From a virus: DNA of 64,000 nucleotides. Positions 1 to 29,371 of the stretch are shown here, piece by piece (positions within the stretch are counted from its first letter, which is position 1; each line of letters starts with the position of its first letter). Location: the IMG/VR virus record IMGVR_UViG_3300045988_142974, positions 108,868 to 172,867 of that record. One strand, 5' to 3'. A program made the translations under genes and the position numbers. Under the pieces are notes generated by a model. It worked only from the letters and a program-made list of their open reading frames with translations. It was not told the DNA's origin and ran no database searches.

Positions 1-810
1 GAAATTGGAAAGTCAGTTGCAATGACAGGTGATGGTGTAAATGATAGTCCTGCTTTAAAGAGAGCTGATGTTGGTTTTGGTATGCAAGGTGGATCAGATG
101 TTGCAAAAGAAGCTTCAGACATTGTATTGACAGATGATAATTTTGCAAGCGTAGTAAAGGCAGTAGAACTTGGAAGAACATTTATGCACAATATTATGAT
201 GTTCCTTGAATTCCAGTTACCTATCAATATTTCACTTCTAATTCTCAGCGTTATCTATCCAATGATTGCAACGGGCGCATTACTCGCATCGGTTCAGATT
301 CTGATTGTAAATATCATTATGGATTCCCTTAATTCACTATCATTCGGTGGCGAACCTCCAAAGGATGAATACATGACAGAGAAACCTATTAAAAAGGGTT
401 CTGGTTTATTCATCAGAGGAGCAAAGAAACGTATTGCAATAAGTACAGTAGCTTTTATTGCACTTTATGGAATTATTACATTCAGTCCTATTGCAAATAT
501 GTTTGCATCTGAAACAGAAGCTATGACAGCGAGATTCGCATTGTTATGCTTTATGGCAGTATTTAATGGATTTAATATTCGTACAGAACACATTAATTTA
601 TTCAATGGTATTGGGAAGAACAAACTGTTCTCAGCCATTGCAATCGGAATTTTTGTAATGACTTTTGCTCTTTGCAACTTTGCAGAAAATCTTATTAAGG
701 TTACAGCTTTAGATTTCAAACATTGGGTAGTAGTTGTAATTCTAGCGTTTATGGTTATTCCAATTGATCTTATTAGAAAGATTATTGAGAAGAAAAGAGA
801 GAATAAGTAA
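1..810 (+). CDS. P-type cation-transporting ATPase, C-terminal part (PMCA/SERCA-like Ca2+ pump); 5' end outside window
   Basis: Frame open from base 1: EIGKSVAMTGDGVNDSPALKRADVGFGM (GDGxND hinge motif), DIVLTDDNF, then several hydrophobic helices; stop 808-810. Confidence 0.9.
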   Translation, partial: EIGKSVAMTGDGVNDSPALKRADVGFGMQGGSDVAKEASDIVLTDDNFASVVKAVELGRTFMHNIMMFLEFQLPINISLLILSVIYPMIATGALLASVQILIVNIIMDSLNSLSFGGEPPKDEYMTEKPIKKGSGLFIRGAKKRIAISTVAFIALYGIITFSPIANMFASETEAMTARFALLCFMAVFNGFNIRTEHINLFNGIGKNKLFSAIAIGIFVMTFALCNFAENLIKVTALDFKHWVVVVILAFMVIPIDLIRKIIEKKRENK

Positions 811-826
811 TTGAGGAGATGAGAAC

Positions 827-1036
827 ATGGTAATGAGAGATAAAAGTTATAAAACAGTAGAGATTATTACTCTTATATGTTTTTCAATTAGTGTTATTAC
901 AGTATGTATTACACGCTTTATTCCATTTATTTTTCTGACATTACTCACATTCCCAATTTCTTTTAAATTATTAAAAGGGAAGGTTGACAGCCTTCCCAAG
1001 AATAAGGAGGACAAAAAAATATGTCAATTAGTTTAG
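827..1036 (+). CDS. small membrane protein, unknown function
   Basis: ATG 8 nt after GAGGAG; two hydrophobic helices; overlaps next start by 16 nt; no family recognised. Confidence 0.35.
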   Translation: MVMRDKSYKTVEIITLICFSISVITVCITRFIPFIFLTLLTFPISFKLLKGKVDSLPKNKEDKKICQLV

Positions 1037-1599
1037 TTAAAGGTCAGAAGATTGACCTTACAAAATGCAATGCAGGTTTAAACAAAGTCGTATTTGGTCT
1101 TGGATGGGACACAAATAGATACGATGGTAATGCAGATTTCGATTTGGATGTATCAGCATTTTTTACTGATGATTCAGGAAAGGTAACAGGCGAACAGGAT
1201 TTTGTATTTTATGGTCAGCCACAGCATCCAAGCGGAGCATTGATTTATTCTGGCGATAATAGAACAGGTGTAGGTGATGGCGATGACGAGACAATGATTG
1301 TTGAGTTAAATAAGATTCCATCTAATATTACAAAGATTAGCTTCTCAGCGACAATTTATGATGCAGAAAATCGTTTACAGAATTTTGGAATGGTTGATAA
1401 TTCGTACATTAGAGCATACAACGCTGATACAAATGAGGAACTTTTCAAATATGAACTTAATGAGGATTTCTCATTAGAGACAGGTGTTATTGCAGGTGAG
1501 TTGTATCGTAAGAACGGTGAATGGAAGTTTAATGCAGTTGGTTCAGGTTACAATGGTGGTTTAGCTGCTATTGGTAGAAATTTTGGTCTTGATTTATAA
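1021..1599 (+). CDS. TerD-family stress protein
   Basis: SLVKGQKIDL, GLGWD, DFDLD, GDNRTGVGDGDDE (TerD Ca-binding signature); AAGGAGG SD. Confidence 0.9.
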   Translation: MSISLVKGQKIDLTKCNAGLNKVVFGLGWDTNRYDGNADFDLDVSAFFTDDSGKVTGEQDFVFYGQPQHPSGALIYSGDNRTGVGDGDDETMIVELNKIPSNITKISFSATIYDAENRLQNFGMVDNSYIRAYNADTNEELFKYELNEDFSLETGVIAGELYRKNGEWKFNAVGSGYNGGLAAIGRNFGLDL

Positions 1600-1617
1600 A
1601 ATGGAAGGAGAATATAT

Positions 1618-2193
1618 ATGTCAGTAAATTTAGTAAAAGGACAGAAAATTAATTTATCTAAGGAAGTAGCAGGTGGTCTTACAAAGATTATGGTAGGACT
1701 TGGATGGGATGCTGTTAAGAAAGGATTCTTTGGTTCTAAGCCAAACATTGATTGCGATGCTTCGGCAATTATTTTAGGAAAAGATGATAAGTATCGTACA
1801 TGTGTTTATTATGGTGACAGATCAGCAGAAGACAGATGTGTGTATCATCATGGCGACAACCTCACAGGAGATGGAGACGGTGATGATGAGCAGATTACAG
1901 TTGACCTTGCGAATATTACAAATAAGGTTGAGAAGATTGTATTTGTAGTAAATATCTATGATTGTATTTCAAGAAAGCAGGATTTTGGACTTATCAAGAA
2001 TGCGTACATTAGACTTGTTGATGAGTCAACTGGTAAGGAAATTTGTAAATATAATCTTTCAGATGATTATGCTGGCAAGACAGCAATGGTATTTGCAGAG
2101 GTTTATAAGAAAGACGGAGAGTGGAAATTTAACGCCATCGGTCAGGGAACAAATGATTCAAGTGTTAGCGAATTAACAAGAAGATACAAGTAG
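1618..2193 (+). CDS. TerD-family stress protein
   Basis: NLVKGQKINL, GLGWD, DCDAS, GDNLTGDGDGDDE; SD GGAAGGAG. Confidence 0.9.
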   Translation: MSVNLVKGQKINLSKEVAGGLTKIMVGLGWDAVKKGFFGSKPNIDCDASAIILGKDDKYRTCVYYGDRSAEDRCVYHHGDNLTGDGDGDDEQITVDLANITNKVEKIVFVVNIYDCISRKQDFGLIKNAYIRLVDESTGKEICKYNLSDDYAGKTAMVFAEVYKKDGEWKFNAIGQGTNDSSVSELTRRYK

Positions 2194-2205
2194 GAGGATT
2201 TAATT

Positions 2206-2787
2206 ATGTCAGTTTCGTTAAGTAAAGGACAGAGAGTAGATTTAACAAAGGGTAGACCGTCATTAAAAAACATTCTTGTTGGACTTGGATGGGATATTAA
2301 TCATTATGACGGAGAAGCAGATTTTGATCTCGATGCCTCTGTGTTTATGACAAAAGAGAATGGTAAGGTTGGCAATGACGAGGATTTCATTTTCTATGGT
2401 AATCTTGAACATAGTTCAAAGAGTGTAAAGCATATGGGAGATAACCGTACAGGTGAGGGAGATGGAGATGATGAGGTTATTAAGATTAAACTTGATAAAA
2501 TCCCATCAGACTATGAGACTCTTGCTGTGACGGTCACAATTTATGATGCTGAGAGTAGACTTCAGAACTTCGGTATGGTTGGAAATGCATATGTGCGTGT
2601 AGTAGACGAAGAGACAGGCGAGGAACTTATTCGTTTTGATTTAAGTGAAGACTTCTCTACCGAGACTGCGTTAGTCGTAGCTGAAATATATAAACATAAT
2701 GGCGAATGGAAGTTTAAGGCTGTAGGAAGTGGCTATAACGGTGGATTAAAGGCATTATGTAATCAGTATGGAATTGATGCAGAGTAG
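2206..2787 (+). CDS. TerD-family stress protein
   Basis: SLSKGQRVDL, GLGWD, DFDLDAS, GDNRTGEGDGDDE; closest paralogue of 1021-1599. Confidence 0.9.
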   Translation: MSVSLSKGQRVDLTKGRPSLKNILVGLGWDINHYDGEADFDLDASVFMTKENGKVGNDEDFIFYGNLEHSSKSVKHMGDNRTGEGDGDDEVIKIKLDKIPSDYETLAVTVTIYDAESRLQNFGMVGNAYVRVVDEETGEELIRFDLSEDFSTETALVVAEIYKHNGEWKFKAVGSGYNGGLKALCNQYGIDAE

Positions 2788-2796
2788 GAGGATTGT

Positions 2797-3546
2797 ATGA
2801 CAAATTTTATGTTTATTATAATTGTGGTAATTGTATTAATTGCACTGATTCTTTTCTTTACTCCTTTTGGTAAACAGCTTAGAGTAAAGTTTAAAGGAAG
2901 AACAGATGAAGTAATGCGCCAGGATGCACAAACACCAGAAGGTGCTAGAGATTATTACAATGTAGCCATTAGAGAAAAGGAAGAATTTTATAACAAGGCT
3001 TCTGCTACATATGCAGAGATTTCAGGAAAGCGTGACACAGCAGAGAAAGATTTATACCAGGCGAACAAAGATATTATGCGTGTTACACAGCAGATTAACG
3101 CTTGTCTTGATGAGAACAAAGAAGATGAAGCAATGCAGTATGCAATGAAGAAGTCTACTTTGGAGAATAAGATTAATGTGCTAAAAGATACAATCGAAGA
3201 GATGAAAGAAGCACAGGCTCATCAGAAAGACATTCGTGATCAGGCAGCCGAAGAATTGCAGAAACTTAAAGAGGAAAAGGAACAGGTTCTTTTTCAGATG
3301 GAAGCTGATAGTCAGATTATCGAACTTCATCAGAGTATGGACAGTCTCAATACCAACAATGAGAGTGATAGAATGCTTGAAAGAGTTCGTGAAGGAGCAA
3401 GAAAGACAAGAGAACGTGCAGAAGGAAGTAGAATTGCATATGATTCTAGCGCACAGGCTAATGAGAGAAGACTTGCTAATTCTGAAAGAGAGCGCAATGC
3501 TCGTCAGATTCTTGATGATATGAAGAGACAGAGAGGTAATAAGTAA
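2797..3546 (+). CDS. membrane-anchored coiled-coil protein, PspA/IM30-like
   Basis: N-terminal TM helix then ~200 aa charged heptad-rich region whose layout resembles PspA; by-eye similarity only. Confidence 0.5.
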   Translation: MTNFMFIIIVVIVLIALILFFTPFGKQLRVKFKGRTDEVMRQDAQTPEGARDYYNVAIREKEEFYNKASATYAEISGKRDTAEKDLYQANKDIMRVTQQINACLDENKEDEAMQYAMKKSTLENKINVLKDTIEEMKEAQAHQKDIRDQAAEELQKLKEEKEQVLFQMEADSQIIELHQSMDSLNTNNESDRMLERVREGARKTRERAEGSRIAYDSSAQANERRLANSERERNARQILDDMKRQRGNK

Positions 3547-3774: not shown

Positions 3775-5838
3775 ATGGACGGATTTATGATGTTTAAAAA
3801 GGCTTTGCAGAAGCACTTCGATGAAATGCAGAAAGAGGCTACACATTTATTTGAGGTAAATGTAGATAAGGATGAATTATGGAATACATATCTTGATAGC
3901 TTTCCTGCCGGTACAAATGAGATTTTCAGAGAGCGTAGAGAACATGATTGCAGTTGTTGTAGACAGTTTATCAAGAATATTGGTTCTGCTGTCACCATTA
4001 AGGATAATCAGATTCACACAATCTGGGAACTGAATCTTGGTGATACAACATATCAGCCAGTATGCGATGCACTTGACGCTTTTGTAAAGGCTCATATAGT
4101 TACAGATATTTATACAACTAAGTTCCCTAAGATTGGTACAGATTTTAATTTTGAGGAAATCAATGGAAAGTCTCATAAGTGGGATCATTTCTTCTTAGAG
4201 CTTCCAAGTAAGTTTGTAAATAGAAGTAGCCGTTCCAACGAGGAAGTTAAAGGACAGTTCAGAGATACAAGAAATGTATTTAAGCGTTCTCTTGATGAGA
4301 TTACTATGGATGCACTCGATACAATTCTTGAACTTATCAACTCAAATACACTTTACAAGGGTGAAGAATGGAAGGGAGTACTCACAGAATTTAAGAAGTA
4401 TAAGAAGGAATACGATAAGCTGGCTTCTGATACTGAAAAGGATTTATATGCTTGGGAGAAGTCGGTAACGGCAGGTATGGCTATCGGTAGAATTAGAAAT
4501 CATTCTATTGGAACACTTCTTATCAATGTAAGTGAGGATATGGATCTTGACACAGCAGTTAAGAAGTATGAGCAGATTGTCGCTCCAAGTAATTATAAAA
4601 GACCAAAGGCTATTTTTACAAAGAAAATGCTTGAGGATGCAAAGAAGACCATTACAGAACTCGGTTATATGGATTCATTACAGAGAAGATTTGCTAATCT
4701 GAATGATATTACTGTAAATAATGTACTGTTCTCAAATAAGAGTGCTGCAAGAAGAATGGTAGGTGCAGATGATATTTTTGGTCAGATGGAAAAGGATGTT
4801 GCTGTAAGTCCTAAGAAGTTTTCTAAGGTTGAAGAGATTTCAGCACAGGATTTCATTGATAAGGTACTTCCAACTGCAAAGGAGATTGAAGCTTTTGTAG
4901 AGAATAAACATGAGAAGAACTTTGTTTCTATGATTGCACCTGTAAATCCAGATGCTAAGACAATGTTTAAATGGAACAATGGATTATCTTGGGCTTATTC
5001 AGGAAACATCACCGACTCTGATATGAAGCAGAATGTAAAAGCTGCTGGCGGTAATGTTGACGGTGTTCTTAGATTTTCAATCATGTGGAATGAAGGACAG
5101 AATGATAACAGCGATCTTGATGCGCATTGTAAAGAACCTGATGGTAACGAGATTTATTTCAGTAATTGTAGAAAACCAGAAACTTCAAGATGTGGAGGTC
5201 AGTTAGATATTGATATTACACGCCCTATGACGCAGATGGCAGGAAAACCTTCTGTGGAAAATATTACATGGGCAGATATGTCACGTATGAAGCCAGGTGT
5301 TTATAAGTTTTTTGTTAATCAGTTTGCAGCGAGAGGAAGTAAAGGATTTAAGGCAGAAATTGAATTCAATGGTGAGATTTTTGCGTTTGAATACAATAGT
5401 CCTGTTTCTGGTAATGTTCAGGTGGCAGAAGTTACACTTGACGAGAATGGCAACTTCTCAATTAAGGAAAAGCTGTCTGGAAGTTCATCTATTTCAAGTC
5501 GTGAAATTTGGGGTGTAAATACAAATCAGTTTGTTCCTGTATCAGTAATTAGTTACAGTCCAAACTATTTTGACGAGCAGGATGGAATTGGTCATAGACA
5601 TTTATTTTTCTTCCTGAAGGATTGTGTAAATAGCGAAGAGCCTAATGGATTCTATCTTGAGTTCCTTGATAATGATTTAATGAAGCATAAGAGAGTGTTC
5701 GAGGCTTTAGGTGCTAAGTGTCATGTAGAAGATACTGATGATCAGCTTTCAGGAATTGGTTTTTCGATGACAAAGAGAGCAGATTTAGTTGTTAAGGTTA
5801 AGGGCGCAATAGAGCGTGTAATGAAGATTAAGTTTTAA
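3775..5838 (+). CDS. 687-aa protein of unknown function; possible divergent TerD-like C-terminal domain
   Basis: Track ORF 3583-5838 trimmed to ATG 3775 (AAGAGG 8 nt upstream). HDCSCCRQF Cys cluster near N-terminus. C-terminal LRFSIMWN..DLDAHC..GGQLDIDI parallels TerD motif order. Confidence 0.7.
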   Translation: MDGFMMFKKALQKHFDEMQKEATHLFEVNVDKDELWNTYLDSFPAGTNEIFRERREHDCSCCRQFIKNIGSAVTIKDNQIHTIWELNLGDTTYQPVCDALDAFVKAHIVTDIYTTKFPKIGTDFNFEEINGKSHKWDHFFLELPSKFVNRSSRSNEEVKGQFRDTRNVFKRSLDEITMDALDTILELINSNTLYKGEEWKGVLTEFKKYKKEYDKLASDTEKDLYAWEKSVTAGMAIGRIRNHSIGTLLINVSEDMDLDTAVKKYEQIVAPSNYKRPKAIFTKKMLEDAKKTITELGYMDSLQRRFANLNDITVNNVLFSNKSAARRMVGADDIFGQMEKDVAVSPKKFSKVEEISAQDFIDKVLPTAKEIEAFVENKHEKNFVSMIAPVNPDAKTMFKWNNGLSWAYSGNITDSDMKQNVKAAGGNVDGVLRFSIMWNEGQNDNSDLDAHCKEPDGNEIYFSNCRKPETSRCGGQLDIDITRPMTQMAGKPSVENITWADMSRMKPGVYKFFVNQFAARGSKGFKAEIEFNGEIFAFEYNSPVSGNVQVAEVTLDENGNFSIKEKLSGSSSISSREIWGVNTNQFVPVSVISYSPNYFDEQDGIGHRHLFFFLKDCVNSEEPNGFYLEFLDNDLMKHKRVFEALGAKCHVEDTDDQLSGIGFSMTKRADLVVKVKGAIERVMKIKF

Positions 5839-5859
5839 TTAGAAAAGGAGATTATTATT

Positions 5860-6249
5860 ATGACAAACAACGAATTATTTATCAATGCAACAAGAGCAAA
5901 CTATCAGTTCCCATTCAGAGGAATGATTAACGTAATTGATTTGTGGGATTTATCTCTCACAAATCTGGACTCAGTGTTTAAGACACTCAATGCAGAAGTA
6001 AAGAAGTCTGAGGAAGAAAGTCTTCTAAATACCAAGTCAAAGGAAGATGAGGAGATTTCTAACAAGATTGAAATTGTTAAGTATATTGTTGACGTGAAGC
6101 TGGATGAGAAGAAGAAGAGAGAAGACGCTAAGAAAAATGCTGAGATGAGACAGAGATTGCTTGAAATCAAAGCTAAGAGACAGGATGCAGCACTTGAGAA
6201 TATGTCTGATGAGGATCTGGATAAGGCACTTGCAGAATTAAGTGAGTAA
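5860..6249 (+). CDS. acidic/lysine-rich coiled-coil protein, unknown function
   Basis: SD AAGGAG 8 nt upstream; 129 aa; no motif recognised. Confidence 0.6.
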   Translation: MTNNELFINATRANYQFPFRGMINVIDLWDLSLTNLDSVFKTLNAEVKKSEEESLLNTKSKEDEEISNKIEIVKYIVDVKLDEKKKREDAKKNAEMRQRLLEIKAKRQDAALENMSDEDLDKALAELSE

Positions 6250-6258
6250 TTGTTATAA

Positions 6259-6310
6259 ATATACCATATATAGTATTAAAAATAAACGATATATACTATA
6301 TATGGTATAT
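6259..6310. repeat. 18-bp perfect inverted repeat (hairpin, 16-nt loop); candidate terminator / module boundary
   Basis: ATATACCATATATAGTAT (6259-6276) is the exact reverse complement of ATACTATATATGGTATAT (6293-6310); followed by ATTTT. Confidence 0.8.
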
Positions 6311-6423
6311 ATTTTACATTAGAATGAATCGCACATTTCTTTATGAAATAGATAATTTAATACATATATTAGAAAAATTCAAAAAAGAATGTCCTGAGCA
6401 TATTGGAGAATGGAGATAACATT

Positions 6424-6972
6424 ATGACGAATAAAGAGCAAAATAATTTAAGCAAATACATAGCATTAATTCTTAGACACAGACCTGATGTTATTGGTAT
6501 CGCATTAGATGAACATGGTTGGGCTAACGTGTCAGATCTATTAAAAGGAATCAATAAAACTCAGACGATTACAATGAAAATGCTTGAAAAAATTGTAGAA
6601 GAAGATTCTAAACAGAGATATTCATTTAATCGAGAGAAGACGCTTATAAGAGCAAATCAAGGTCATTCTATAAAAGTTGATGTAGAATTGAAAGAGTGTA
6701 TGCCACCAGATATTTTATATCATGGAACGGGTGTCAAATATTGCTCTTCAATCAATAAACAAGGGTTAATATCCAAGAGTCGTTTATATGTCCATCTATC
6801 AAAAGATATTGAAACAGCAACAAATGTTGGCAGTAGACATGGAGAACCGTTTATTTATAAGGTTCGAGCAAAAGATATGTATAATGATGGATATAAATTC
6901 TTTTTATCTCAAAATGGGGTATGGCTTACAAAAGAAGTACCAATCTGTTATTTAGATGCGTTCTCGAAATAA
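6424..6972 (+). CDS. kptA: RNA 2'-phosphotransferase, Tpt1/KptA family
   Basis: [32 protein letters not shown] and ANQGHS, LYHGT motifs typical of KptA; start moved to ATG 6424 after GGAGA. Confidence 0.85.
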
Positions 6973-7043
6973 GGACAACAAGGACATTCCAAACTTCAAG
7001 GAACGAGTTGAAACAGATATATAAAATTTTGGAGGTTAAGACA

Positions 7044-8072
7044 ATGACAATTGAACAGATTAAGGACAAATTAAAATCAAAAGAGTATGACTTCCTGAGA
7101 ACAGATAAGAATTTGGGTAACAATATCATTATCTTAACTCTTGGTGGAAGTTATGCATATGGAACAAATAATGAGGGTAGCGATTTAGATATTCGTGGTT
7201 GTGCTTTGAATAGCAAGATGCAGATTCTTACAAATGAGAATTTTGAGCAGTTTGTAAACAATGAGACAGACACAACCATTTATGCCTTTAATAAGTTAGT
7301 AGCTTTGTTAAGTAATACAAACCCTAACACAATAGAAATGCTTGGAAATAAGCCAGAACACTATTTCTATGTATCTCCTATTGGTCAGGAACTTATTGAC
7401 AATGCGCATTTATTTTTATCAAAGAGAGCTTGTCATTCGTTTGGCGGTTATGCTAATCAGCAATTATACAGATTAAATCAGAAAGCTGCACATCAGATGT
7501 CGCAGTCTGAATTAGAGAAACATATTCTAAAGACTCTTGAATTTATGCAGACTGACTTCACAAAGAAATATACACCATATGAAGATGATTCTATGAAATT
7601 ATATATTGATAAAGCTGTGCAGGAAGGCTACGATACAGAAATCTTTATGGATATAAATCTTCATCATTACCCATTAAGAGATTATTGTTCTATGTGGAAT
7701 GAGCTTCAGAATACAGTTCGTCAATATGGAAAAATTGGTAAGAGAAATGAAAAAGCAATTGAACATGGTAAAATTGCTAAACATTCAATGCATCTTATTC
7801 GACTGTATATGATGTGCTTAGATATTCTTGAAAAAGAAAGAATAATTACATACAGAGAAGATGAGCATAATTTACTAATGGATATTCGCAATGGCAAGTA
7901 TTTGGATAGCAACGATCAGCCAATCCCAGAATTCTTTGAAATGGTAAATGATTATGAAAAGAGATTAGATTATGCGAAGAAAAACACAAGTCTTCCTGAT
8001 AATCCTAATTATAAGGCTATCAATGAATTTGTTGCTAGTGTAAATGAAAGGGTGGTAAAAGGTGAAATCTAA
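7044..8072 (+). CDS. Pol-beta-fold nucleotidyltransferase (resembles the RlaP / PF10127 RNA-repair-associated type as I recall it)
   Basis: ILTLGGSYAYGTNNEGSDLDIRG = GS-x-YG...SDxD NTase signature; start at ATG 7044 after GGAGG (track ORF 6921 overlaps kptA). Confidence 0.7.
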   Translation: MTIEQIKDKLKSKEYDFLRTDKNLGNNIIILTLGGSYAYGTNNEGSDLDIRGCALNSKMQILTNENFEQFVNNETDTTIYAFNKLVALLSNTNPNTIEMLGNKPEHYFYVSPIGQELIDNAHLFLSKRACHSFGGYANQQLYRLNQKAAHQMSQSELEKHILKTLEFMQTDFTKKYTPYEDDSMKLYIDKAVQEGYDTEIFMDINLHHYPLRDYCSMWNELQNTVRQYGKIGKRNEKAIEHGKIAKHSMHLIRLYMMCLDILEKERIITYREDEHNLLMDIRNGKYLDSNDQPIPEFFEMVNDYEKRLDYAKKNTSLPDNPNYKAINEFVASVNERVVKGEI

Positions 8073-9429
8073 TTTGAAGATTGAAATTCCATCTGGTGCA
8101 AATGAAATTATCCATAGTCTACAAAATAATGGATATGAAGCTTTCTTAGTCGGAGGATGTGTAAGAGATAGTATTCTTGGCAGACCAATTCACGATTATG
8201 ACATTACAACTTCTGCCACGCCAGATGAGATGATGGAAGTATTCAAGGACAAGAGAATTATTGAAACTGGATTACAGCATGGAACTATCACAATTTTAAT
8301 TGACGGTGAAGGATATGAATGTACCACTTACAGAATTGACGGTAATTACTCAGATAGTCGTAGACCTGATAGCGTAACATTTACACGAAATCTTAAAGAA
8401 GATTTAAAGCGTAGAGATTTTACAATTAATGCAATGGCTTACAATGATGAAGTTGGTCTTATAGATCCGTTTAATGGTATGGAAGATATTAAATACCACA
8501 AGATTAGATGTGTTGGCAGAGCAGAAGACAGATTTTCAGAAGATGCATTAAGAATTTTACGTGCCATTCGGTTTGCCTCACAGTTGGGATTTGTCCTTGA
8601 ACCTGATACAGATTGGCATATTTCTAAAATGTATAAGAATTTGGAGAATATATCTATTGAAAGGATCAATAGTGAATTTTGTAAAATTGCTGCATCGAGT
8701 GATTTCTGTGTACAAATGGTCTTATATCACGAAGTATTCTCGTTGTTCATTCCTGAAATTAAAGATATGTTTGGTTTTCAACAGAATAATCCATATCACA
8801 TGTATGATGTATGGAATCATACCGTACATGCAATAGAATATTGTGAATCCGATGATTTAGTAACAAGATTGGCAGTATTCTTTCACGATTTTGGTAAGCC
8901 ACACTGTTATCAAGATGGAGAAGATGGTATCAGACACTTTAAAGGTCATGGAAGAGTAAGTGCTGATATGACCAATGAGATTATGAAACGTCTTAGATTT
9001 GACAATGATACAAGAGAAAAGGTCATTGAATTAGTCTATTATCATGATGCTACTTTTGAGGTGGGAAAGAAATATGTCAAGAGATGGCTTAATAAAATTG
9101 GAGAAGAACAGTTCAGAAGGTTATTAAATGTTCGTAGAGCTGATATTAAAGCACAAGCAGACATGGCTCAGGAAACAAGATTACAGAAAATTGATAACAT
9201 CGAATATATTTTAGAAGAAGTCTTACAGGATGATGAATGTTTTTCTCTAAAGGATTTAGCAGTTAATGGAAAAGATGTAATGGATACAATGCTCATTAAA
9301 AGTGGAAAAGAAGTTGGCTACTGGCTCAATGAAATCTTAACTCGTGTAATAGATGGGAGATTAAAAAATGATAAAGAGGATCTTATTTATTGGATGACTG
9401 GTATTACAGATGGTTGGATAGAATATTAA
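8062..9429 (+). CDS. cca: CCA-adding tRNA nucleotidyltransferase with HD domain
   Basis: GGCVRDSILGRPIHDYDITT, RRDFTINAMA head-domain motifs; FHDFGKP HD motif; GTG start overlaps upstream stop by 11 nt. Confidence 0.85.
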   Translation: MKSNLKIEIPSGANEIIHSLQNNGYEAFLVGGCVRDSILGRPIHDYDITTSATPDEMMEVFKDKRIIETGLQHGTITILIDGEGYECTTYRIDGNYSDSRRPDSVTFTRNLKEDLKRRDFTINAMAYNDEVGLIDPFNGMEDIKYHKIRCVGRAEDRFSEDALRILRAIRFASQLGFVLEPDTDWHISKMYKNLENISIERINSEFCKIAASSDFCVQMVLYHEVFSLFIPEIKDMFGFQQNNPYHMYDVWNHTVHAIEYCESDDLVTRLAVFFHDFGKPHCYQDGEDGIRHFKGHGRVSADMTNEIMKRLRFDNDTREKVIELVYYHDATFEVGKKYVKRWLNKIGEEQFRRLLNVRRADIKAQADMAQETRLQKIDNIEYILEEVLQDDECFSLKDLAVNGKDVMDTMLIKSGKEVGYWLNEILTRVIDGRLKNDKEDLIYWMTGITDGWIEY

Positions 9430-9439
9430 CGGAGGTAAT

Positions 9440-10180
9440 ATGTACGAAAAATTAAAAGAATATATAAAAGAATCAAATAATATTGTATTCTTTGGTGGAG
9501 CAGGTGTATCAACTGAAAGTGGTATTCCTGATTTTCGTTCCAAGGATGGATTATATAATCAGCATGACGTTCAGTTTGATAAATACGAACCAGAATATCT
9601 TTTGAGTAGAGAATGTTTATATAATAATCCAAAGATATTTTATGAGTTCTATCGTCAGAAGATGGATACAAGAAATGTTGAACCAAACGTTACTCATAAG
9701 GTGCTTGCTAAGATGGAAGAAATAGGTAAGTTGAAAGCTATTGTAACACAGAATATTGATGGACTTCATCAGAAAGCTGGAAGTAAGAATGTCTTTGAGA
9801 TTCATGGAACTACTCAGAAGAATTATTGTAGTAAGTGTAAGATGAAATATCATTCTGATTTCTTGTTTAACACTAAAGATGCTATTCCAAAGTGTGAATG
9901 TGGTGGGCTGATTAGACCTGATGTGACTTTATACGGAGAGAATCTTCCTAACGAAGCTGTAAATGGAGCAATCAGAGCTATTCGAGATGCTGAAATGTTG
10001 ATTATTGGTGGCACTTCATTAAAAGTTTATCCAGCAGCTCATTATATTTCATATTTTAGTGGTAGACATTTGGTTGTTATCAATATGGAGAAAATTCAAG
10101 TGTTGTTGAATGAGGATACAGATCTGATGATTGTTGATTCGTTAGGTAATGTGTTCAGTGAAATTGATAAATGGATGTGA
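9440..10180 (+). CDS. NAD+-dependent protein deacylase, Sir2 family (canonical sirtuin)
   Basis: FFGGAGVSTESGIPDFRS, TQNIDGLH, catalytic EIHG, Zn ribbon CSKC...CECG. Confidence 0.9.
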   Translation: MYEKLKEYIKESNNIVFFGGAGVSTESGIPDFRSKDGLYNQHDVQFDKYEPEYLLSRECLYNNPKIFYEFYRQKMDTRNVEPNVTHKVLAKMEEIGKLKAIVTQNIDGLHQKAGSKNVFEIHGTTQKNYCSKCKMKYHSDFLFNTKDAIPKCECGGLIRPDVTLYGENLPNEAVNGAIRAIRDAEMLIIGGTSLKVYPAAHYISYFSGRHLVVINMEKIQVLLNEDTDLMIVDSLGNVFSEIDKWM

Positions 10181-10193
10181 GGTGAGAGAATAA

Positions 10194-11235: not shown

Positions 11236-11256
11236 TCATGTATAAAAATTTCTATC

Positions 11257-11428: not shown

Positions 11429-12352
11429 TTGACAGAGAATAATGAAAAAAATAATTCTCAAGGGCTACGAGTATTAAGTTTATGTGGTGGCGTTGAAACA
11501 GGATTGTATGCGTTACAGAAGCTCGGAATACCTATAAGAGAATATCATACATATGAAATTTTGCCAGAAGCCATAGCAGTTTCTCAGTACCATTTTCCGT
11601 TTGTGGTACATCATGGCGATTTATATGAAGCGGATTTTGAAGAGTTTAAAGGATTTGATTTACTGTTGGCAGGAACTTGTTGCCAGTCACTTTCAAGAGT
11701 GCGAATTGAAAGTAAAGAGGTCAATAATGGTCTTGATGGTAAGTCAGGAATTTTCTTTAAAGCAATTGAGTGTCTTAGGGCAATTCAGCCCAAATATTTC
11801 ATGTTTGAAAATGTAATACCAAGTAGTGACGAAGATCTGAAGACAATGACAGAATGCATTGGTGTAGAACCTATTTTGATTAATTCAGGAAAATTTTCTG
11901 CGCAGAGTCGTGAAAGATATTATTGGACAAACATACCATTAGGTAAATTACCTGATAAATCTCCATTAGTTTTAAAAGATATTATGGAGAATAGTGTAGA
12001 TGAGAAATATTTCTATAAGAAAGATTTTGAAATCTTGGATATGAGTAAACGTGTATGTGCAGAGTTAAAAGTTAATTCTATGGAAATGAATAGAAGAATT
12101 TATAATCCAGATTTTAAGTGCTGCACATTAACTTGTATAAATGGTGGATATCATGAAAAGAAAGTATTAGATAGTAGCAGACCACGAAAACTTACAGAAG
12201 TTGAATATGAAAGATTACAGGGATTACCTGATAATTTTACAAAAGTTCAGCTTAATGGTCGTTGGTTATCATACTCAAAAAGATGTAGTTTGATGGGCAA
12301 TGGATGGAATGAATCTACTGTTGAATGGATCTTGAGTGGGTTAAGAGAATAA
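11429..12352 (+). CDS. DNA (cytosine-5)-methyltransferase
   Basis: LSLCGGVETG (motif I), GTCCQSLS (catalytic Cys), MFENV, QSRERYYW, GNGW. Only in-frame start is TTG 11429 with no SD. Confidence 0.85.
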   Translation: MTENNEKNNSQGLRVLSLCGGVETGLYALQKLGIPIREYHTYEILPEAIAVSQYHFPFVVHHGDLYEADFEEFKGFDLLLAGTCCQSLSRVRIESKEVNNGLDGKSGIFFKAIECLRAIQPKYFMFENVIPSSDEDLKTMTECIGVEPILINSGKFSAQSRERYYWTNIPLGKLPDKSPLVLKDIMENSVDEKYFYKKDFEILDMSKRVCAELKVNSMEMNRRIYNPDFKCCTLTCINGGYHEKKVLDSSRPRKLTEVEYERLQGLPDNFTKVQLNGRWLSYSKRCSLMGNGWNESTVEWILSGLRE

Positions 12353-16591: not shown

Positions 16592-17467
16592 ATGTTAGAG
16601 ATTAACAAAATATACAACGAAGATTGCTTTGAAGGTATGAAAAAGATTGATGATAAGTCAATAGATTTTATTTTTACGGATCTTCCTTATAATACGACTA
16701 ATAATTCTTGGGAATGTGAAATGCCGTTAAATGATTATGTCGAGTTATCAGGTCAATATTTTTATGAAACAGATTTATTCAAGTTAGCTCAAGTAACAAA
16801 TAGCAGTCTCGAATATACAAGAGATTGGTTCTACGAGAATAAGAAAGATGGCTTATGGAATCATTACAATCGAATCATCAAAGATAACGGTTGTATTGCA
16901 CTATGGGCGCAGTCACCTTTTGATAAGAAACTCGCTTGTAGTAATGAAAAGCTATATCGCTATGAATGGATTATCGAAAAAACCAAAGCAACTGGTCATC
17001 TAAATGCAAAGAAAATGCCTATGAAGGCACACGAAAATGTCTTAATTTTCTATAAGAAACTCCCTACTTACAATCCACAAATGACAGAAGGACATACACC
17101 TGTTCATTCTTATACAAAACATACAACAGATGGTAGCTGTTATGGTGCTACAAAGACTGGTATTTCAGGTGGTGGTAGTACACAAAGATACCCAAGAGAT
17201 GTTCAGCAGTTCAAGTGGGACACTCAGAAAAGTAGCTTACATCAATGTCAAAAGCCTGTTGAAGCGTGTGAGTATTTTATTAAAACCTATACTAATCCAG
17301 GAGATTTAGTTCTTGATTCGTGTGCAGGAAGTTGTACCACTGCAGTTGCAGCTTTGAATACAGGTAGAAATTACATATGTTTTGAGAAGGACAAGGATAT
17401 TTTTGAGGTTGGAAGTAAGAGAGTAGCTGAATATGCTAATCAGGATTTATTGATAAGTGCAACTTAA
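16592..17467 (+). CDS. DNA methyltransferase, N4/N6 beta class
   Basis: FTDLPYN (DPPY-type motif IV) N-terminal, DSCAGSCTTAVAA (motif I) C-terminal. Confidence 0.85.
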   Translation: MLEINKIYNEDCFEGMKKIDDKSIDFIFTDLPYNTTNNSWECEMPLNDYVELSGQYFYETDLFKLAQVTNSSLEYTRDWFYENKKDGLWNHYNRIIKDNGCIALWAQSPFDKKLACSNEKLYRYEWIIEKTKATGHLNAKKMPMKAHENVLIFYKKLPTYNPQMTEGHTPVHSYTKHTTDGSCYGATKTGISGGGSTQRYPRDVQQFKWDTQKSSLHQCQKPVEACEYFIKTYTNPGDLVLDSCAGSCTTAVAALNTGRNYICFEKDKDIFEVGSKRVAEYANQDLLISAT

Positions 17468-17540: not shown

Positions 17541-18275
17541 ATGAAATATATGGGTTCAAAATCTCGTATAGTTGATAATATTTTACCGATTATTCAAGAA
17601 AGATTGCGAGATTATAATATCAAAACATACATAGAGCCATTTTGCGGCGGCTGTAATGTAATCGACAAAGTTCAATGTGATATAAAAATCGCTTCTGACA
17701 ATCATAAATATCTTATTGAAATGTTCAAGAATCTAAATCAGATTCAAAATCTCCCAGAATTTATTACAAAAGAACATTACTCAGATGTAAGAAAGTGTTT
17801 TAATAAAGGATTATCCCAATATCCAGATTGGTATATTGGTGCAGTTGGCTTTCTTTCAAGCTATAACGGAAGATTCTTTGATGGAGGTTACTCAGGTATC
17901 GTATATACAAAAGCTGGAACTGAAAGAAATTATTACGATGAAGCTAAGAGAAATTTGTTAGAGCAGATTCCAAGGTTAGAAGATATTCAATTCCAATGTG
18001 GAGATTATAAAGAGTTATATTCTGATAAAGTTGACTGCTTATTTTATTGCGATATTCCATATAAGGGTACGAAACAGTATGGATCAAGTAAGAATTTTGA
18101 TTATGACAGATTCTGGAATTGGGCTGAGAAGATGAGCGAGAAAAATATTGTCTTAGTCAGTGAGCATGAAGCTCCTTCTGGATGGGAATGTATTTGGCAA
18201 CAGGAAGTCAAGAGAACGATTGACAATACGAAGCAAGTTAAAGCAGTAGAAAAGTTATTTGAAATTAGAGAATAA
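17541..18275 (+). CDS. Dam-like N6-adenine DNA methyltransferase (D12 class)
   Basis: MKYMGSKSRI, EPFCGG, YCDIPY. Confidence 0.85.
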   Translation: MKYMGSKSRIVDNILPIIQERLRDYNIKTYIEPFCGGCNVIDKVQCDIKIASDNHKYLIEMFKNLNQIQNLPEFITKEHYSDVRKCFNKGLSQYPDWYIGAVGFLSSYNGRFFDGGYSGIVYTKAGTERNYYDEAKRNLLEQIPRLEDIQFQCGDYKELYSDKVDCLFYCDIPYKGTKQYGSSKNFDYDRFWNWAEKMSEKNIVLVSEHEAPSGWECIWQQEVKRTIDNTKQVKAVEKLFEIRE

Positions 18276-18824: not shown

Positions 18825-19661
18825 TTGAAAAATACATATATTAAATCGCCTCTAAATTATGTCGGAGGCAAGTATAAGTTACTACCAATTATTGTACCAA
18901 TGTTTCCAGATAAGATAAATACTTTTGTAGATTTATTTGGTGGAGGTTTTAATGTCGGTATTAATGTAAAAGCTGATCATATTATCTACAATGATATATG
19001 TGAGCAGGTAGTTGGTTTTCTAAGATATTTACAAGGTTCAAATATTGAAGAAGTATTATATAAGATTGATTCATATATTAGTAAGTATGGATTAACGAAA
19101 GAAAACAAAGAAGGATATTTACTGTTTAGAAAAGAATATAACACAGGTATTAAAGATCCAATTAAATTCTATACGCTTTTATGTTATGCGTTCAATAATC
19201 AAATCAGATTCAATTCCAAAGGTGAATATAACATGCCTTTTGGTAAAGACAGATCCAGTTTTAATCCCACTCTTAGACAAAAATTTATAGATTTTCATAA
19301 GCAACTGAATGAAATAGATTGTAGTTTCTTAAATATTCCATTTGAGAGATTTGATTTTTCTGATTTTACGGAAGGTGATTTTGTTTATGCAGATCCACCA
19401 TATTTTAATTCTGTTGCTACATACAATGAAAACGGTGGCTGGACAGAAGAAATGGAGAATAAATTACTAGAGACTCTTGATGCTTTGAATGATAAAGGCG
19501 TTAAGTTTGCATTAAGTAATAATCTCAAATATGACAATCCATTACTTGATAAATGGAAAGATAAATACATAGTTCATTATTTAAAGCATGATTATAGTAA
19601 CTGTAATTACCAGAAAAAGGATAAGAGTGCAGATTGTGAGGTATTAATCACAAATTATTAA
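18825..19661 (+). CDS. Dam-like N6-adenine DNA methyltransferase (D12 class)
   Basis: LNYVGGKYKLL, FVDLFGGGFNV, YADPPY; TTG start, no SD. Confidence 0.85.
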   Translation: MKNTYIKSPLNYVGGKYKLLPIIVPMFPDKINTFVDLFGGGFNVGINVKADHIIYNDICEQVVGFLRYLQGSNIEEVLYKIDSYISKYGLTKENKEGYLLFRKEYNTGIKDPIKFYTLLCYAFNNQIRFNSKGEYNMPFGKDRSSFNPTLRQKFIDFHKQLNEIDCSFLNIPFERFDFSDFTEGDFVYADPPYFNSVATYNENGGWTEEMENKLLETLDALNDKGVKFALSNNLKYDNPLLDKWKDKYIVHYLKHDYSNCNYQKKDKSADCEVLITNY

Positions 19662-23626: not shown

Positions 23627-24121
23627 ATGAAGATAGAATTAATCAAATTAAAATTCAATGATACTTGTACATATAAGCATAAGCCATTCACTTATTGCTG
23701 TGATGAAATTCAAAATGATAAGGCTATTGTATTTACAGGTGAAGATTTAGTATGCAACGATACTTTTGGATTAGTAGTAAGAGATTCAGATGATAATATA
23801 ATTCCTCAATTTTGTACTTCATATACTGAAACATTTACCTCTTGGGGAGATGAATACGAACAGACAGACAATTATCCAATTCAGTTTTGTCCTCATTGCG
23901 GAGAGAAGATTGAAATTTCTGTTATAGAGGAGATTGATGTGTCTGATAAGTACAATGAACTGACTAAGCAACGTGAAGAATTATGGAAGAAGTGTCAGAG
24001 AACGGATAGTAAGAAGAAAGAATTTGAATTAAGAGAGCAGGTTGAAAAACTTGATAAACAGATTGATAGTTTCTATTGGTTAGATGAGTGGAAAGGAGAA
24101 TATTACTATGGCAGTATTTAA
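23627..24121 (+). CDS. hypothetical protein with Zn-ribbon-like CPHCG
   Basis: GGAGAATAA junction SD; 164 aa. Confidence 0.5.
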   Translation: MKIELIKLKFNDTCTYKHKPFTYCCDEIQNDKAIVFTGEDLVCNDTFGLVVRDSDDNIIPQFCTSYTETFTSWGDEYEQTDNYPIQFCPHCGEKIEISVIEEIDVSDKYNELTKQREELWKKCQRTDSKKKEFELREQVEKLDKQIDSFYWLDEWKGEYYYGSI

Positions 24122-26207: not shown

Positions 26208-27257
26208 ATGAACAATGAAAATAAAAATACTAATTCATCAGAGTTTAAACATACAAAAGACGATTTGGCTCGTCTTATGAGTATGTCTCTCAATGAAAAA
26301 GTTGGTGTCACACAAGCACGAACTATGGAATGGTATGTCCATTATAATAAAAAGTGTTATGTGTCATTTTCAGGTGGCAAGGATAGTACAGTTCTTGCAT
26401 ACATAGCTGCACAAGTTTGTTACTTATTTAAGTGTAAGCTTGTTCTTTGGTTTTCTGATACAGGATTGGAATTTCCTGAATTAAGAGAACATGTCAAAAC
26501 TTATGGAGATTGGTTGATGAAACAATTTCCTGGTTCAGAAGGTTTTCCACCATTAGTAGTTGAAACAATTATAGATCCACCAAAAGACAGAAAAGGAAAG
26601 AGAATAGTATTTAAGGATGTGATTCTTAATCAAGGATATCCAATTCTTAGTAAAAATATCAGTAGACAGATTGGTGATGTCCAGAGATTAGGACAAGACT
26701 GTTGGGCTGCAAGATGTTTCGATGGCAGAGAAACAGGAATGTATGACATGAGAAAGTGGAAATTTGTCATAGATGCACCATTTAAAGTATCAAATAAATG
26801 TTGTGACATTATGAAGAAACGACCAGCTCATCGTTTTACAAAAGAGTCTGGACTTATGCCATTAGTTGCAACAATGACTTGTGAAAGTAAGCAGAGAAAA
26901 ACAGAGTGGTTACATAATGGATGTAATGCATTTGATAAGAAAAATCCAAGCAGTCAGCCAATGAGTTTTTGGACTGAGCAAGATGTACTTAAATTTATAG
27001 TGAGATACGACCTTCCTTATCCATCTGTATATGGTGAGATAAAGCAGAATGAAAAAGGAGAATATTATACTACAGGATATAGTCGTACAGGCTGTATGTT
27101 CTGTGCATATGGTTGTCATTTAGAGAAAGAACCGAATAGATTTCAGATGCTAAAGCAGACACATCCTAAGATTTGGGAGTATTGTATGAAACCTGTATCC
27201 GAAGGTGGGCTTGGAATGAAAACAGTCTTGGAATTTATTGGTGTTAAGTTCGAGTAA
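26208..27257 (+). CDS. PAPS-reductase-family PP-loop protein (DndC/IbrA-like)
   Basis: VSFSGGKDSTVLAYIA PP-loop; C-terminal Cys cluster TGCMFCAYGC; no SD at start. Confidence 0.8.
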   Translation: MNNENKNTNSSEFKHTKDDLARLMSMSLNEKVGVTQARTMEWYVHYNKKCYVSFSGGKDSTVLAYIAAQVCYLFKCKLVLWFSDTGLEFPELREHVKTYGDWLMKQFPGSEGFPPLVVETIIDPPKDRKGKRIVFKDVILNQGYPILSKNISRQIGDVQRLGQDCWAARCFDGRETGMYDMRKWKFVIDAPFKVSNKCCDIMKKRPAHRFTKESGLMPLVATMTCESKQRKTEWLHNGCNAFDKKNPSSQPMSFWTEQDVLKFIVRYDLPYPSVYGEIKQNEKGEYYTTGYSRTGCMFCAYGCHLEKEPNRFQMLKQTHPKIWEYCMKPVSEGGLGMKTVLEFIGVKFE

Positions 27258-28971: not shown

Positions 28972-29371
28972 TCCATATCTTAATGATGATATGTGTATAG
29001 ATCGCTTGGTTGAAAATTGGAAACTACACAATGGAATAATAATTGCATTTGATTTTGATAATACAATTTTTGATTACTATGACAAAGGATATAGGTATGA
29101 CAAAGTTATTACTCTATTAAGAGAATGTAAAGATATGGGATGTACATTGATTCTCAGTACATGTTGTGACGAATCAAAATTTGAATTTATGGAGAATAAA
29201 TGTATAGAGGTTGGAATTCATATTGATTACATAAATGACTCACCACCTTATATCCCTTTCACTGGCAATAAAATCTATTACAACATTATGTTAGACGATA
29301 GAGCTGGTTTGAGTGCAGCTTATAAAATTTTGTATGAGACAAAGGAGAGAATTAAAAATGAAACATTTTGA
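28943..29371 (+). CDS. HAD-superfamily phosphatase (nucleotidase-like)
   Basis: IAFDFDNTIFD (DxDxT motif I), MLDDRAG (motif IV); overlaps both neighbours. Confidence 0.65.
   Translation: MKKLNNIVVDPYLNDDMCIDRLVENWKLHNGIIIAFDFDNTIFDYYDKGYRYDKVITLLRECKDMGCTLILSTCCDESKFEFMENKCIEVGIHIDYINDSPPYIPFTGNKIYYNIMLDDRAGLSAAYKILYETKERIKNETF

Follow-up and report, generated by a model that had tools for sequence, protein, structure and literature searches.

Do four adjacent genes on a phage genome form one dedicated module, or have they merely come to lie side by side? The question is raised by a 64,000-nucleotide stretch of a virus (IMG/VR record IMGVR_UViG_3300045988_142974, positions 108,868 to 172,867; hereafter the window, with positions given in its own numbering), where four head-to-tail open reading frames (ORFs) on the + strand, at 6424-10180, encode a KptA/Tpt1 family protein, a Pol-beta nucleotidyltransferase of the RlaP family, a CCA-adding enzyme (CCA) and a sirtuin (Sir2). 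The original prediction took them for a single RNA-end repair operon linked by nicotinamide adenine dinucleotide (NAD+). Our analyses favour a different answer. We consider it likely that KptA, RlaP and CCA belong to a tRNA-repair toolkit dispersed over the phage genome, that the four-gene row is a gene-shuffling slot filled by chance, and that Sir2 is independent of the other three.

The family assignments themselves hold, with profile matches at or above the curated thresholds and the catalytic residues present, and the ORFs and their spacing are as had been described (Table 1). KptA, for which there is an alternative TTG start at 6403, matches PF01885 at 1e-46 (159 bits, cutoff 26) and the NCBIfam model NF002014 at 245 bits (cutoff 239); its best PDB match is 7kw8 (2e-45), the R16/H17 numbering of which fits the Runella Tpt1 residues of PMC6097658, and in this alignment the catalytic tetrad R18, H19, R76 and R120 falls on R16, H17, R64 and R119 of RslTpt1. 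The RlaP-family protein matches phrog_388 over its full length (3.5e-50) and PF10127 at 8e-14 (52 bits, cutoff 23; residues 19-148 against profile positions 11-144 of 249), and it has the motif G34-G-S ... D47-L-D49. CCA scores 328 bits (cutoff 290) as a Firmicutes-type CCA equivalog (NF009814) and matches PDB 1miv over the head domain (6e-65 class, 208 bits), with motifs A (GGCVRD31 and D45-Y-D47), B (RRD117) and D (EDALR160) and the HD residues H275-D276; CCA-, A- and CC-adding specificities are indistinguishable from its sequence. Sir2 matches PF02146 at 3.5e-56 and the deacylase equivalog NF001752 at 309 bits (cutoff 221), its closest structures being Sir2Tm (PDB 1yc5, 1e-45) and Sir2Af; the motifs GAGVS20 and TQNID103, the catalytic H122 and the zinc ligands C130/C133/C152/C154, the second pair of the form CxC, are all in place. 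The four genes are real and, with their catalytic motifs intact, look functional.

The idea of one module fails on the neighbourhood of the genes in relatives. We fetched relatives on the conserved upstream gene p129, regardless of the focal genes, and in the 70 loci with at least 6 kb of downstream sequence scored the gene content within 8 kb. Just downstream of the conserved backbone pair DUF8224 and p129 and of an AT-rich dyad lies a hypervariable slot, and in this sample it shows 11 different gene combinations. None of the genes is present in 24 of the 70 loci, while RlaP-CCA is found in 22, KptA-CCA in seven and PARG, a gene for an ADP-ribose hydrolase, alone in another seven; Sir2-PARG, KptA-CCA-Sir2 and RlaP-CCA-Sir2 occur twice each, and Sir2, RlaP-CCA-PARG, KptA-Sir2 and KptA once each. 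CCA is the most frequent of the focal genes in the slot, and the full quartet KptA-RlaP-CCA-Sir2 is found in 0 of the 70 loci. Four Logan contigs (L003-L006), in which RlaP is 100% identical, keep KptA-RlaP-CCA and carry small unrelated ORFs in place of Sir2; the trio without Sir2 was seen only there. One part of the quartet does hold together: in the anchored sample RlaP is followed by CCA in all 25 RlaP loci with the same overlapping junction, CCA comes directly after RlaP, with the same overlap, in 69 of 80 loci selected on RlaP, and the pair keeps the overlap of stop and start codons in loci ranging from 99% to ~48-53% identity (L365, L344). RlaP-CCA is thus a stable, tightly coupled sub-unit. 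A second RlaP allele (~65% identity) was observed in L130 (11534-12496), where a 320-aa ORF without Pfam or PHROG match separates it from CCA.

The junctions of the quartet tell of the same process. Between KptA and RlaP lies a relic of the 5' end of a gene that we call X, whose product in relatives is a protein of 182-191 aa (phrog_8839, no Pfam match); X stands intact between KptA and CCA, or between KptA and Sir2, in relatives with the orders KptA-X-CCA and KptA-X-Sir2. More broadly, X accompanies KptA, CCA or Sir2 in many relatives (L132 11292-11840, L172 11098-11658, L126 10777-11352, L121 10893-11516). Upstream of KptA (~6341-6420) a remnant is left of the tail of an 82-aa ORF, whose intact form is found in relatives. 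We read the relic at the KptA/RlaP junction as a recombination scar between a KptA and an RlaP cassette and, given the junction relics and the shuffled content, conclude that the adjacency of the quartet is the recent product of recombination in a cassette-shuffling hotspot. Cassettes of one or two genes are swapped into and out of the slot by recombination, and this genome happens to have KptA, RlaP, CCA and Sir2 in a row. The quartet is not a conserved module, and what had been taken for one is a one-off juxtaposition of swappable accessory genes.

The slot region of relatives (L003 15252-17220; L121 13444-14512; L186 11251-12024) carries further genes of this kind: an isochorismatase-family (nicotinamidase-like) gene, a DUF5662 gene and a Prs-like phosphoribosyltransferase, as well as a stand-alone protein with the metallophosphoesterase-like motifs GDIHGN...GNHE and no Pfam match. 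These may be NAD+/nicotinamide-related cassettes. In the window itself the isochorismatase, the DUF5662 protein, an intact X and the stand-alone metallophosphoesterase-like protein are all absent, the Prs-like gene not having been searched for there.

Spacing was one reason for reading the four genes as one unit, and the overlaps and short gaps are real: 71 nt separate KptA and RlaP, RlaP and CCA overlap by 11 nt, and CCA and Sir2 are 10 nt apart. In a greedy set of 92 + strand genes of the window, however, gaps have a median of 14 nt and 84% of them measure at most 75 nt, and because of this baseline the tight spacing of the quartet is not special. The same criterion, moreover, yields a unit that runs from the AT-rich dyad to the next large gap at 11236 and comprises seven genes, adding DUF551, p151 and p99 to the quartet. 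The dyad is the strongest inverted repeat of the window, with an RNA fold of -21.5 kcal/mol (z = -4.9); only 7 gaps exceed 150 nt, and the dyad sits in one of them, within a segment, 5800-6341, that is conserved in all relatives. It is likely a terminator or a regulatory boundary in front of the variable slot, and it could also be an operator or a recombination boundary. A consensus scan found no terminator-like site within 6.4-10.2 kb, and its promoter-like sites were at chance level and uninformative on transcription units. One copy of the GAGAATA box, which had been said to be absent between the genes, lies inside the CCA gene at 8644, and a weak dyad lies inside Sir2 (9594-9639). The window as a whole has 83 copies of GAGAATA where ~20 are expected; 79 of them are on the + strand, and the motif often stands ~8 nt before start codons (e.g., at 10186, 1608, 23615 and 49671). 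We set aside its reading as a promoter box or unit boundary, as the position before start codons looks like an extended Shine-Dalgarno context. Co-transcription of the four genes remains a presumption.

If the quartet is not the unit, the relevant company of KptA, RlaP and CCA has to be sought more widely, and it is found both in the window and in relatives. Some 13 kb from RlaP, the window encodes a predicted end-healing and sealing enzyme that fuses a P-loop polynucleotide kinase (residues 4-142), a calcineurin-like phosphoesterase (173-324) and an ATP-dependent RNA ligase (~420-732), and 22 kb downstream of the focal cluster it encodes a Thg1-like protein, a putative further enzyme of tRNA 5'-end repair. 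The distances shrink in relatives: RlaP, CCA and the ligase are contiguous in L070/L218, the ligase is directly followed by RlaP in L228, L229, L294 and L356 (49-60% identity), and in L212-L214 and L226 the ligase occupies the p129 slot itself. Three Phascolarctobacterium metagenome-assembled genome (MAG) contigs have a KptA homolog (60-62% identity) directly upstream of a full-length homolog of the ligase fusion (45-48%), with a gap of ~35-40 nt in L200 and L201 and of ~0.8 kb in L199. Because the ligase fusion and the Thg1-like gene share the window, and because KptA, RlaP and CCA adjoin the ligase in relatives, the RNA-end repair reading is supported for these three genes. No link of Sir2 to such repair could be shown.

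How these enzymes might work together can be outlined from homology. The kinase-phosphoesterase-ligase fusion would heal and seal endonucleolytic breaks. RlaP enzymes add one or two nucleoside monophosphates to damaged RNA 3'-OH ends and have been proposed to counter ribotoxins that excise nucleotides, RloC among them (PMC12776372); the protein encoded here is predicted to do likewise, and may refill 1-2 nucleotides trimmed from the 3' fragment before sealing. CCA, perhaps with the HD phosphoesterase, would rebuild damaged 3' acceptor ends and the Thg1-like enzyme 5' ends, while KptA would use NAD+ to remove a function-blocking 2'-phosphate from a junction or an end. The order of these steps is our suggestion, and the likely purpose is survival of host tRNA-targeting nucleases. 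Several observations weigh against such a toolkit. The Pfam match of RlaP covers only the N-terminal half of the protein and leaves the C-terminal 190 aa outside, and a sequence search against PDB gave no match at E<=1. Scans of the window for tRNA genes and for Rfam families were both empty and gave no pointer to specific targets. The genes of the toolkit assort in near independence of one another: no IMG/VR contig is listed both for KptA and for the ligase fusion, and in 24 of 70 relatives the slot holds none of the genes. It follows that the parts are individually dispensable and may work alone or with host enzymes.

Sir2 stands apart from the rest. As had been predicted, it is a canonical sirtuin and not a defence-type SIR2 NADase: models of the latter (Thoeris ThsA, DSR, SIR2-HerA, pAgo-SIR2) gave only partial PADLOC matches of 12-15 bits (E>=1e-3), and the NCBIfam model Dsr1 scored 13.9 bits against a cutoff of 1400. 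In relatives, Sir2 follows CCA, follows X, comes directly after p129 or occurs with PARG; it lies beside KptA, CCA or RlaP in the same slot in L090, L116, L085 and L172, and without any of the other three in L144, L186 and L126. It is a facultative, independently moving cassette. Sirtuins, too, have been described as part of phage RNA-repair systems, and for one clade of phage sirtuins Iyer et al. suggested a KptA-like part in RNA repair (both in section 3.7.3 of PMC9503650). The Sir2 of the window, however, matches 8 Escherichia phage records at E<=1e-5, though rV5-like coliphages are numerous in the collection, and with so few Escherichia phage matches it is not close kin of the clade as that section describes it. 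The only visible tie of Sir2 to the other three genes is the shared NAD+/ADP-ribose chemistry together with the PARG/macro gene nearby, which co-occurs with Sir2 in L126, L186, L040 and L058. The protein encoded by that gene may plausibly consume the ADP-ribose products that Sir2 or KptA would release, or else may erase ADP-ribosylation. Our best guess is that Sir2 acts on host or phage proteins, deacylating them during host takeover; an NAD+ link between Sir2 and RNA repair is conjecture.

The ligase part of the fusion bears on another suggestion of the original prediction, that KptA implies a yeast- or plant-style ligation chemistry. By sequence, the domain matches the fungal Trl1 ligase domain (LIG) at 1e-14 and T4 Rnl1 at 1e-5. 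The fusion family is large, with at least 622 clusters at 50% identity (E<=1e-30), mostly of the same three-domain layout (members P0121-P0270), and is found in phages of Staphylococcus (Twort-like), SPbeta-like phages and phages of Escherichia and Campylobacter. A profile built from 22 diverse members, taken from a representative-library search, hits the Chaetomium and Candida Trl1 LIG in PDB at E 1e-33 to 6e-28, through the Rnl6-specific C-domain, and T4 Rnl1 at 2e-13 over the nucleotidyltransferase core only; it aligns to CthLIG 95-396, the 'IIKLR..F' of the all-helical C-terminal domain included. An AlphaFold2 model of the domain (predicted local distance difference test score, pLDDT, 94.8) has Trl1 LIG as all of its top 7 Foldseek matches, with a template modelling score (TM) of 0.77-0.81 and a root-mean-square deviation (rmsd) of 3.7-3.9 A, as compared with TM 0.60 and rmsd ~11 A for T4 Rnl1. 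The adenylyltransferase motifs I, III, IV and V are present (K501-E-N-G, E564, E646-G-F-V-I and K659-x-K661). Fungal LIG binds the terminal 2'-PO4 with the triad His227/Arg334/Arg337, which enforces its 2'-PO4 specificity (PMC11404444); the CthLIG triad aligns to H573/K669/R672, invariant or nearly so in the 22 members, with H573 nine residues past the motif III Glu, as in Trl1, and K669 a nearly invariant Lys in the family. The L199 homolog has the exact KxK-x8-R-x2-R pattern. By profile and by predicted fold, then, the phage domain is of the Trl1/Rnl6 type. We rejected the fusion as a bacterial Pnkp: the ligase domain is not of the Rnl4 type, neither the sequence searches nor the top 50 structural matches of the domain brought up a CthPnkp ligase chain, and the downstream ORF (23627-24121, 164 aa) has no Pfam or methyltransferase match, leaving the fusion without a Hen1 partner. 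It is not a whole Trl1 either, the order being KIN (AAA_33)-Metallophos-LIG and a 2H domain being absent. A general adjacency of KptA and ligase was likewise rejected: among 160 diverse loci of the ligase there was not one with KptA inside 8 kb, and in phage genomes the two co-occurred poorly at the level of genera.

Against the dispersed toolkit stand three other accounts of the quartet. The four genes might be an obligate operon, one co-evolving NAD+-linked RNA-end repair unit with the sirtuin directly involved, e.g., as an ADP-ribosyltransferase on RNA ends paralleling KptA. Such a unit would agree with the co-directional, overlapping or closely spaced genes and the lack of a terminator-like site between them, with the consumption of NAD+ by both KptA and Sir2, with the KptA-like role put forward for one sirtuin clade in the section by Iyer et al. 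cited above, and with the recurrence of Sir2 in the slot beside KptA, CCA or RlaP. We nevertheless find it very unlikely: the quartet is missing from all 70 anchored relatives, and the closest relatives, L003-L006, do without Sir2, which elsewhere travels without the other three, scores as a canonical protein-deacylase equivalog and is not close to the RNA-repair clade; the junctions are recombination scars, and the tight spacing is the norm genome-wide. The opposite extreme, that four unrelated accessory genes came together in a recombination hotspot with no functional relation whatsoever, would be in line with the extensive shuffling, the junction relics and the relatives lacking all of the genes. 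It is no more credible than the operon, as the overlapping RlaP-CCA pair has persisted across the whole range of identities, each of RlaP, CCA and KptA adjoins this one RNA ligase fusion in diverged genomes, and five or six RNA-end enzymes within 27 kb are unlikely by chance. Somewhat less improbable, though still quite unlikely, is a conflict island in which KptA, Sir2 and PARG act mainly on NAD+-derived modifications or signals, for example in ADP-ribose capping of 5'-phosphate ends, erasure of host-installed ADP-ribosylation or protein deacylation, and merely share the slot with repair genes. Tpt1 enzymes are reported to be able to ADP-ribosylate 5'-phosphate RNA and DNA ends (PMC6182162, and as cited in PMC12678800); Sir2 and PARG occur together in the four loci named above, isochorismatase (nicotinamidase-like) and Prs-like genes occupy the slot of relatives, an NAD-dependent DNA ligase is also in the window, and the ligase fusion went undetected on 32 IMG/VR contigs that carry KptA. 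Yet CCA accompanies KptA in 9 of the 11 anchored KptA loci and KptA elsewhere adjoins the RNA ligase fusion, neither an ADP-ribosyltransferase toxin nor a target is evident, and none of KptA, Sir2 and PARG matches a PADLOC defence model.

The remaining alternative concerns the chemistry of sealing. In a fungal-type pathway, the Rnl6-type ligase would need a 3'-OH,2'-PO4 end and leave a 2'-PO4 at the junction, a mark that KptA would erase with NAD+, as Tpt1 does after Trl1. For this speak the reach of the ligase profile into the Trl1 C-domain, the uniform Foldseek ranking, the alignment of the 2'-PO4 triad to H573/K669/R672 and the position of KptA directly upstream of the fusion in the three Phascolarctobacterium contigs; in addition, the KptA of the window is closest to Runella Tpt1, which is active on internal, not terminal, 2'-PO4 (PMC6573784). 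We hold the pathway to be rather unlikely, however. A Lys takes the place of the first triad Arg, and the GDVHG motif of the healing domain (H181) is of the wild-type form; in CthPnkp, ends with 2'-OH result from the wild-type His, and 2'-PO4 is obtained only with the mutant H189D (PMC1920235). KptA is absent within +-8 kb of the ligase throughout the diverse loci, the phage genera with the ligase (Staphylococcus Twort-like, Escherichia, Campylobacter and SPbeta) barely overlap those with KptA (Erwinia, Dickeya, Klebsiella, Clostridioides), and the contig lists of the two among the IMG/VR relatives are disjoint. Of the suggested yeast- or plant-style ligation, a Trl1/Rnl6-type ligase domain with most of the 2'-phosphate triad thus stands, while a general coupling of KptA to the ligase does not. 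Our literature search found no description of prokaryotic or phage Rnl6 ligases, and papers on Tpt1 describe bacteria as lacking fungal-type ligases and the substrates of bacterial Tpt1 as unknown (PMC11417386, PMC6573784). Hence a tentative and rather doubtful proposition: bacteria and phages possess Rnl6 ligases with the pocket His/(Lys or Arg)/Arg kept, and in the present phage, as in certain Phascolarctobacterium elements with the two genes side by side, 2'-phosphorylated ends would be sealed by the ligase and the 2'-PO4 left at the junction removed by KptA with NAD+. If true, this would give prokaryotic Tpt1/KptA its long-sought natural substrate; with a Trl1/Rnl6 ligase sometimes adjoining KptA, two recombinant proteins and an RNA substrate bearing 2'-PO4 would allow a direct test.

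As for the phage, the window is the replication and accessory arm of a large (~150-180 kb), low-GC and probably temperate human-gut phage. All its large ORFs are on one strand, its GC content is ~32%, and it carries a DnaB-like helicase, a primase, a PolC-like polymerase, an exoV/Dda helicase and the NAD-dependent DNA ligase, and further NrdD, an integrase, four DNA methyltransferases and three TerD paralogs. The NAD-dependent DNA ligase is the third NAD+-consuming enzyme of the window, beside KptA and Sir2. The family consists of very abundant human-gut viral contigs of ~90-185 kb in IMG/VR, and its nearest cultured relatives are the ~130-kb phiCD211-type phages of C. difficile, where KptA (53% identity) and the RlaP-family gene (44%) lie 5 kb apart. 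A megablast search of the focal region against phage genomes gave no match, and distant blastn gave only patchy matches, to C. difficile phiCD211-like phages and gut 'Bacteriophage sp.' contigs. In a genome collection, the host search returned one 'uncultured Bacilli' MAG at 96% and Phascolarctobacterium and Acetatifactor MAGs at ~60%, with no clear host assignment. The integrase of the window is a tyrosine integrase with a Tn916-type DNA-binding domain, and in relatives the backbone genes are preceded by an integrase, a helix-turn-helix regulator and a PemK toxin (L003 32-1754); these genes suggest a temperate or plasmid-like lifestyle. At the other end of the window, a stress-response block (22-3546, + strand) is unusual for a phage arm. 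The methyltransferases, interspersed among accessory genes, presumably serve anti-restriction, and a PAPS-reductase-like protein (phrog_424) and a weak radical-SAM match, both on the + strand (26208-27257 and 29313-30335), possibly act in nucleic-acid modification.

Table 1. Coordinates of the focal genes and other features, numbered within the window unless a relative's contig is named.
Feature	Position	Strand	Matches and remarks
Cation-transporting ATPase, C-terminal fragment	window edge, within 22-3546	+	
Three tandem TerD paralogs	1021-2787	+	
PspA/IM30-like protein	2797-3546	+	
p129, conserved upstream gene	5860-6249		anchor for fetching relatives
AT-rich dyad	6251-6318		18-bp perfect stem, 16-nt loop, then AUAUUUU; just downstream of p129
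KptA/Tpt1, predicted NAD+-dependent RNA 2'-phosphotransferase, 182 aa	6424-6972	+	PF01885, NF002014, phrog_5470
Relic of gene X 5' end (codons 9-28)	6956-7015	+	blastn/tblastn 80-89% identity to X of L129, L172, L126
RlaP-family Pol-beta nucleotidyltransferase, 342 aa	7044-8072	+	PF10127, phrog_388
Class II CCA-adding tRNA nucleotidyltransferase with HD domain, 455 aa, GTG start	8062-9429	+	PF01743, PF12627, PF01966 (HD), PF13735
Canonical sirtuin, Sir2Tm/CobB-like predicted NAD+-dependent protein deacylase, 246 aa	9440-10180	+	PF02146, NF001752
Four DNA methyltransferases (one C5, one N6_N4, two D12-class Dam-like)	11429-12352, 16592-17467, 17541-18275, 18825-19661	+	
Microbial PARG/macro-type ADP-ribose hydrolase, 260 aa	13621-14403	+	PF10021 1e-26, weak PF01661
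Kinase-phosphoesterase-RNA ligase fusion, predicted end-healing and sealing enzyme, 732 aa	21424-23622	+	PF13671, PF00149, PF09511; phrog_8238 3.8e-224
Thg1-like 3'-5' nucleotidyltransferase (tRNA-His guanylyltransferase-like), 285 aa	32318-33175	+	PF04446 5e-31, PF14413 (Thg1 C-terminal domain)
NAD-dependent DNA ligase	53301-55283	+	phrog_3869 8e-173
Tyrosine integrase	62738-63919	+	Tn916-type DNA-binding domain
KptA-ligase fusion pairs in relatives	L199 3429-6947; L200 3994-6749; L201 77-2205		

Taken alone, the four-gene cluster is one more example of phage RNA-repair genes and of modest impact; the more interesting by-products, the shuffling hotspot and the Trl1/Rnl6-type ligase fusion, lie partly outside its coordinates. 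The gut-phage family amounts to a natural experiment, in which KptA, RlaP, CCA, Sir2, PARG and the ligase fusion are swapped at one hotspot in genomes otherwise more than 95% identical, and its cassette variants offer a near-isogenic natural set for testing which repair genes counter which host nucleases.

Such genes have been catalogued in phages by Iyer, Burroughs, Anantharaman and Aravind, whose work reportedly builds on that of Burroughs and Aravind from 2016. Their lists, in section 3.4.9 of the 2021 Viruses paper on jumbo phages (PMC7824862) and section 3.7.3 of the 2022 Viruses paper on NAD+-ADPr systems (PMC9503650), include RNA ligase, polynucleotide kinase, calcineurin-like phosphatase, KptA, RlaP, CCA-adding enzyme, Thg1 (in PMC7824862) and the macro domain. 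The claim that such functions would be unusual for a phage was therefore overstated, the components being already described in these sections and RlaP being biochemically characterised (PMC12776372). The toolkit considered here has the same component list and the same proposed purpose as given there, the undoing of tRNA cleavage or trimming by host nucleases. It differs in residing in a ~150-kb gut Firmicutes-type phage and not a jumbo phage, in being spread over 27 kb as independently shuffled cassettes, and in having a sirtuin of the canonical deacylase type rather than of the proteobacterial-phage RNA-repair clade of those authors; the sections cited do not mention that the ligase domain is of the Rnl6 type.

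Among sealing systems, fungal and plant Trl1 with Tpt1 resemble the phage in the Rnl6 fold (C-domain included), in motifs I, III, IV and V, and in the residues aligned to the triad His and its second Arg; here, too, a kinase and a 3'-end-healing domain are part of the same polypeptide, and KptA is encoded in the same genome and adjacent in some MAG contigs. The phage order, however, is KIN-phosphoesterase-LIG, whereas that of Trl1 is LIG-KIN-CPD, the healing domain is a binuclear metallophosphoesterase in place of a 2H cyclic phosphodiesterase, Lys stands for the first Arg of the triad, and the coupling to KptA is not general. Bacterial Pnkp/Hen1, as in Clostridium thermocellum Pnkp, has the same order of P-loop kinase, calcineurin-like phosphoesterase (GDxHG) and C-terminal adenylyltransferase/ligase, but the phage ligase is Rnl6/Trl1-like rather than Rnl4 and lacks a Hen1 partner. 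T4 Pnkp and Rnl1 likewise combine a phage healing kinase/phosphatase with a ligase of the Rnl1 superfamily for a presumed reversal of tRNA anticodon-loop cleavage; in our case the activities are predicted for a single fused polypeptide, with a metallophosphoesterase in place of the HAD phosphatase and a Trl1-type ligase C-domain, and the accessory nucleotidyltransferases (RlaP, CCA, Thg1) and KptA are added. Also comparable are the RtcB-RlaP-RtcA operons of Pseudomonas (Carruthers, Fatma and Huang, bioRxiv Dec 2025, PMC12776372), where an RlaP-family nucleotidyltransferase is likewise genetically linked to an RNA ligase and is proposed to restore nucleotides removed by 'smart' ribotoxins such as RloC. 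There the partner ligase is RtcB; in the gut phages it is of the 5'-PO4/3'-OH ATP-dependent type, and the tightest coupling of RlaP is to CCA.

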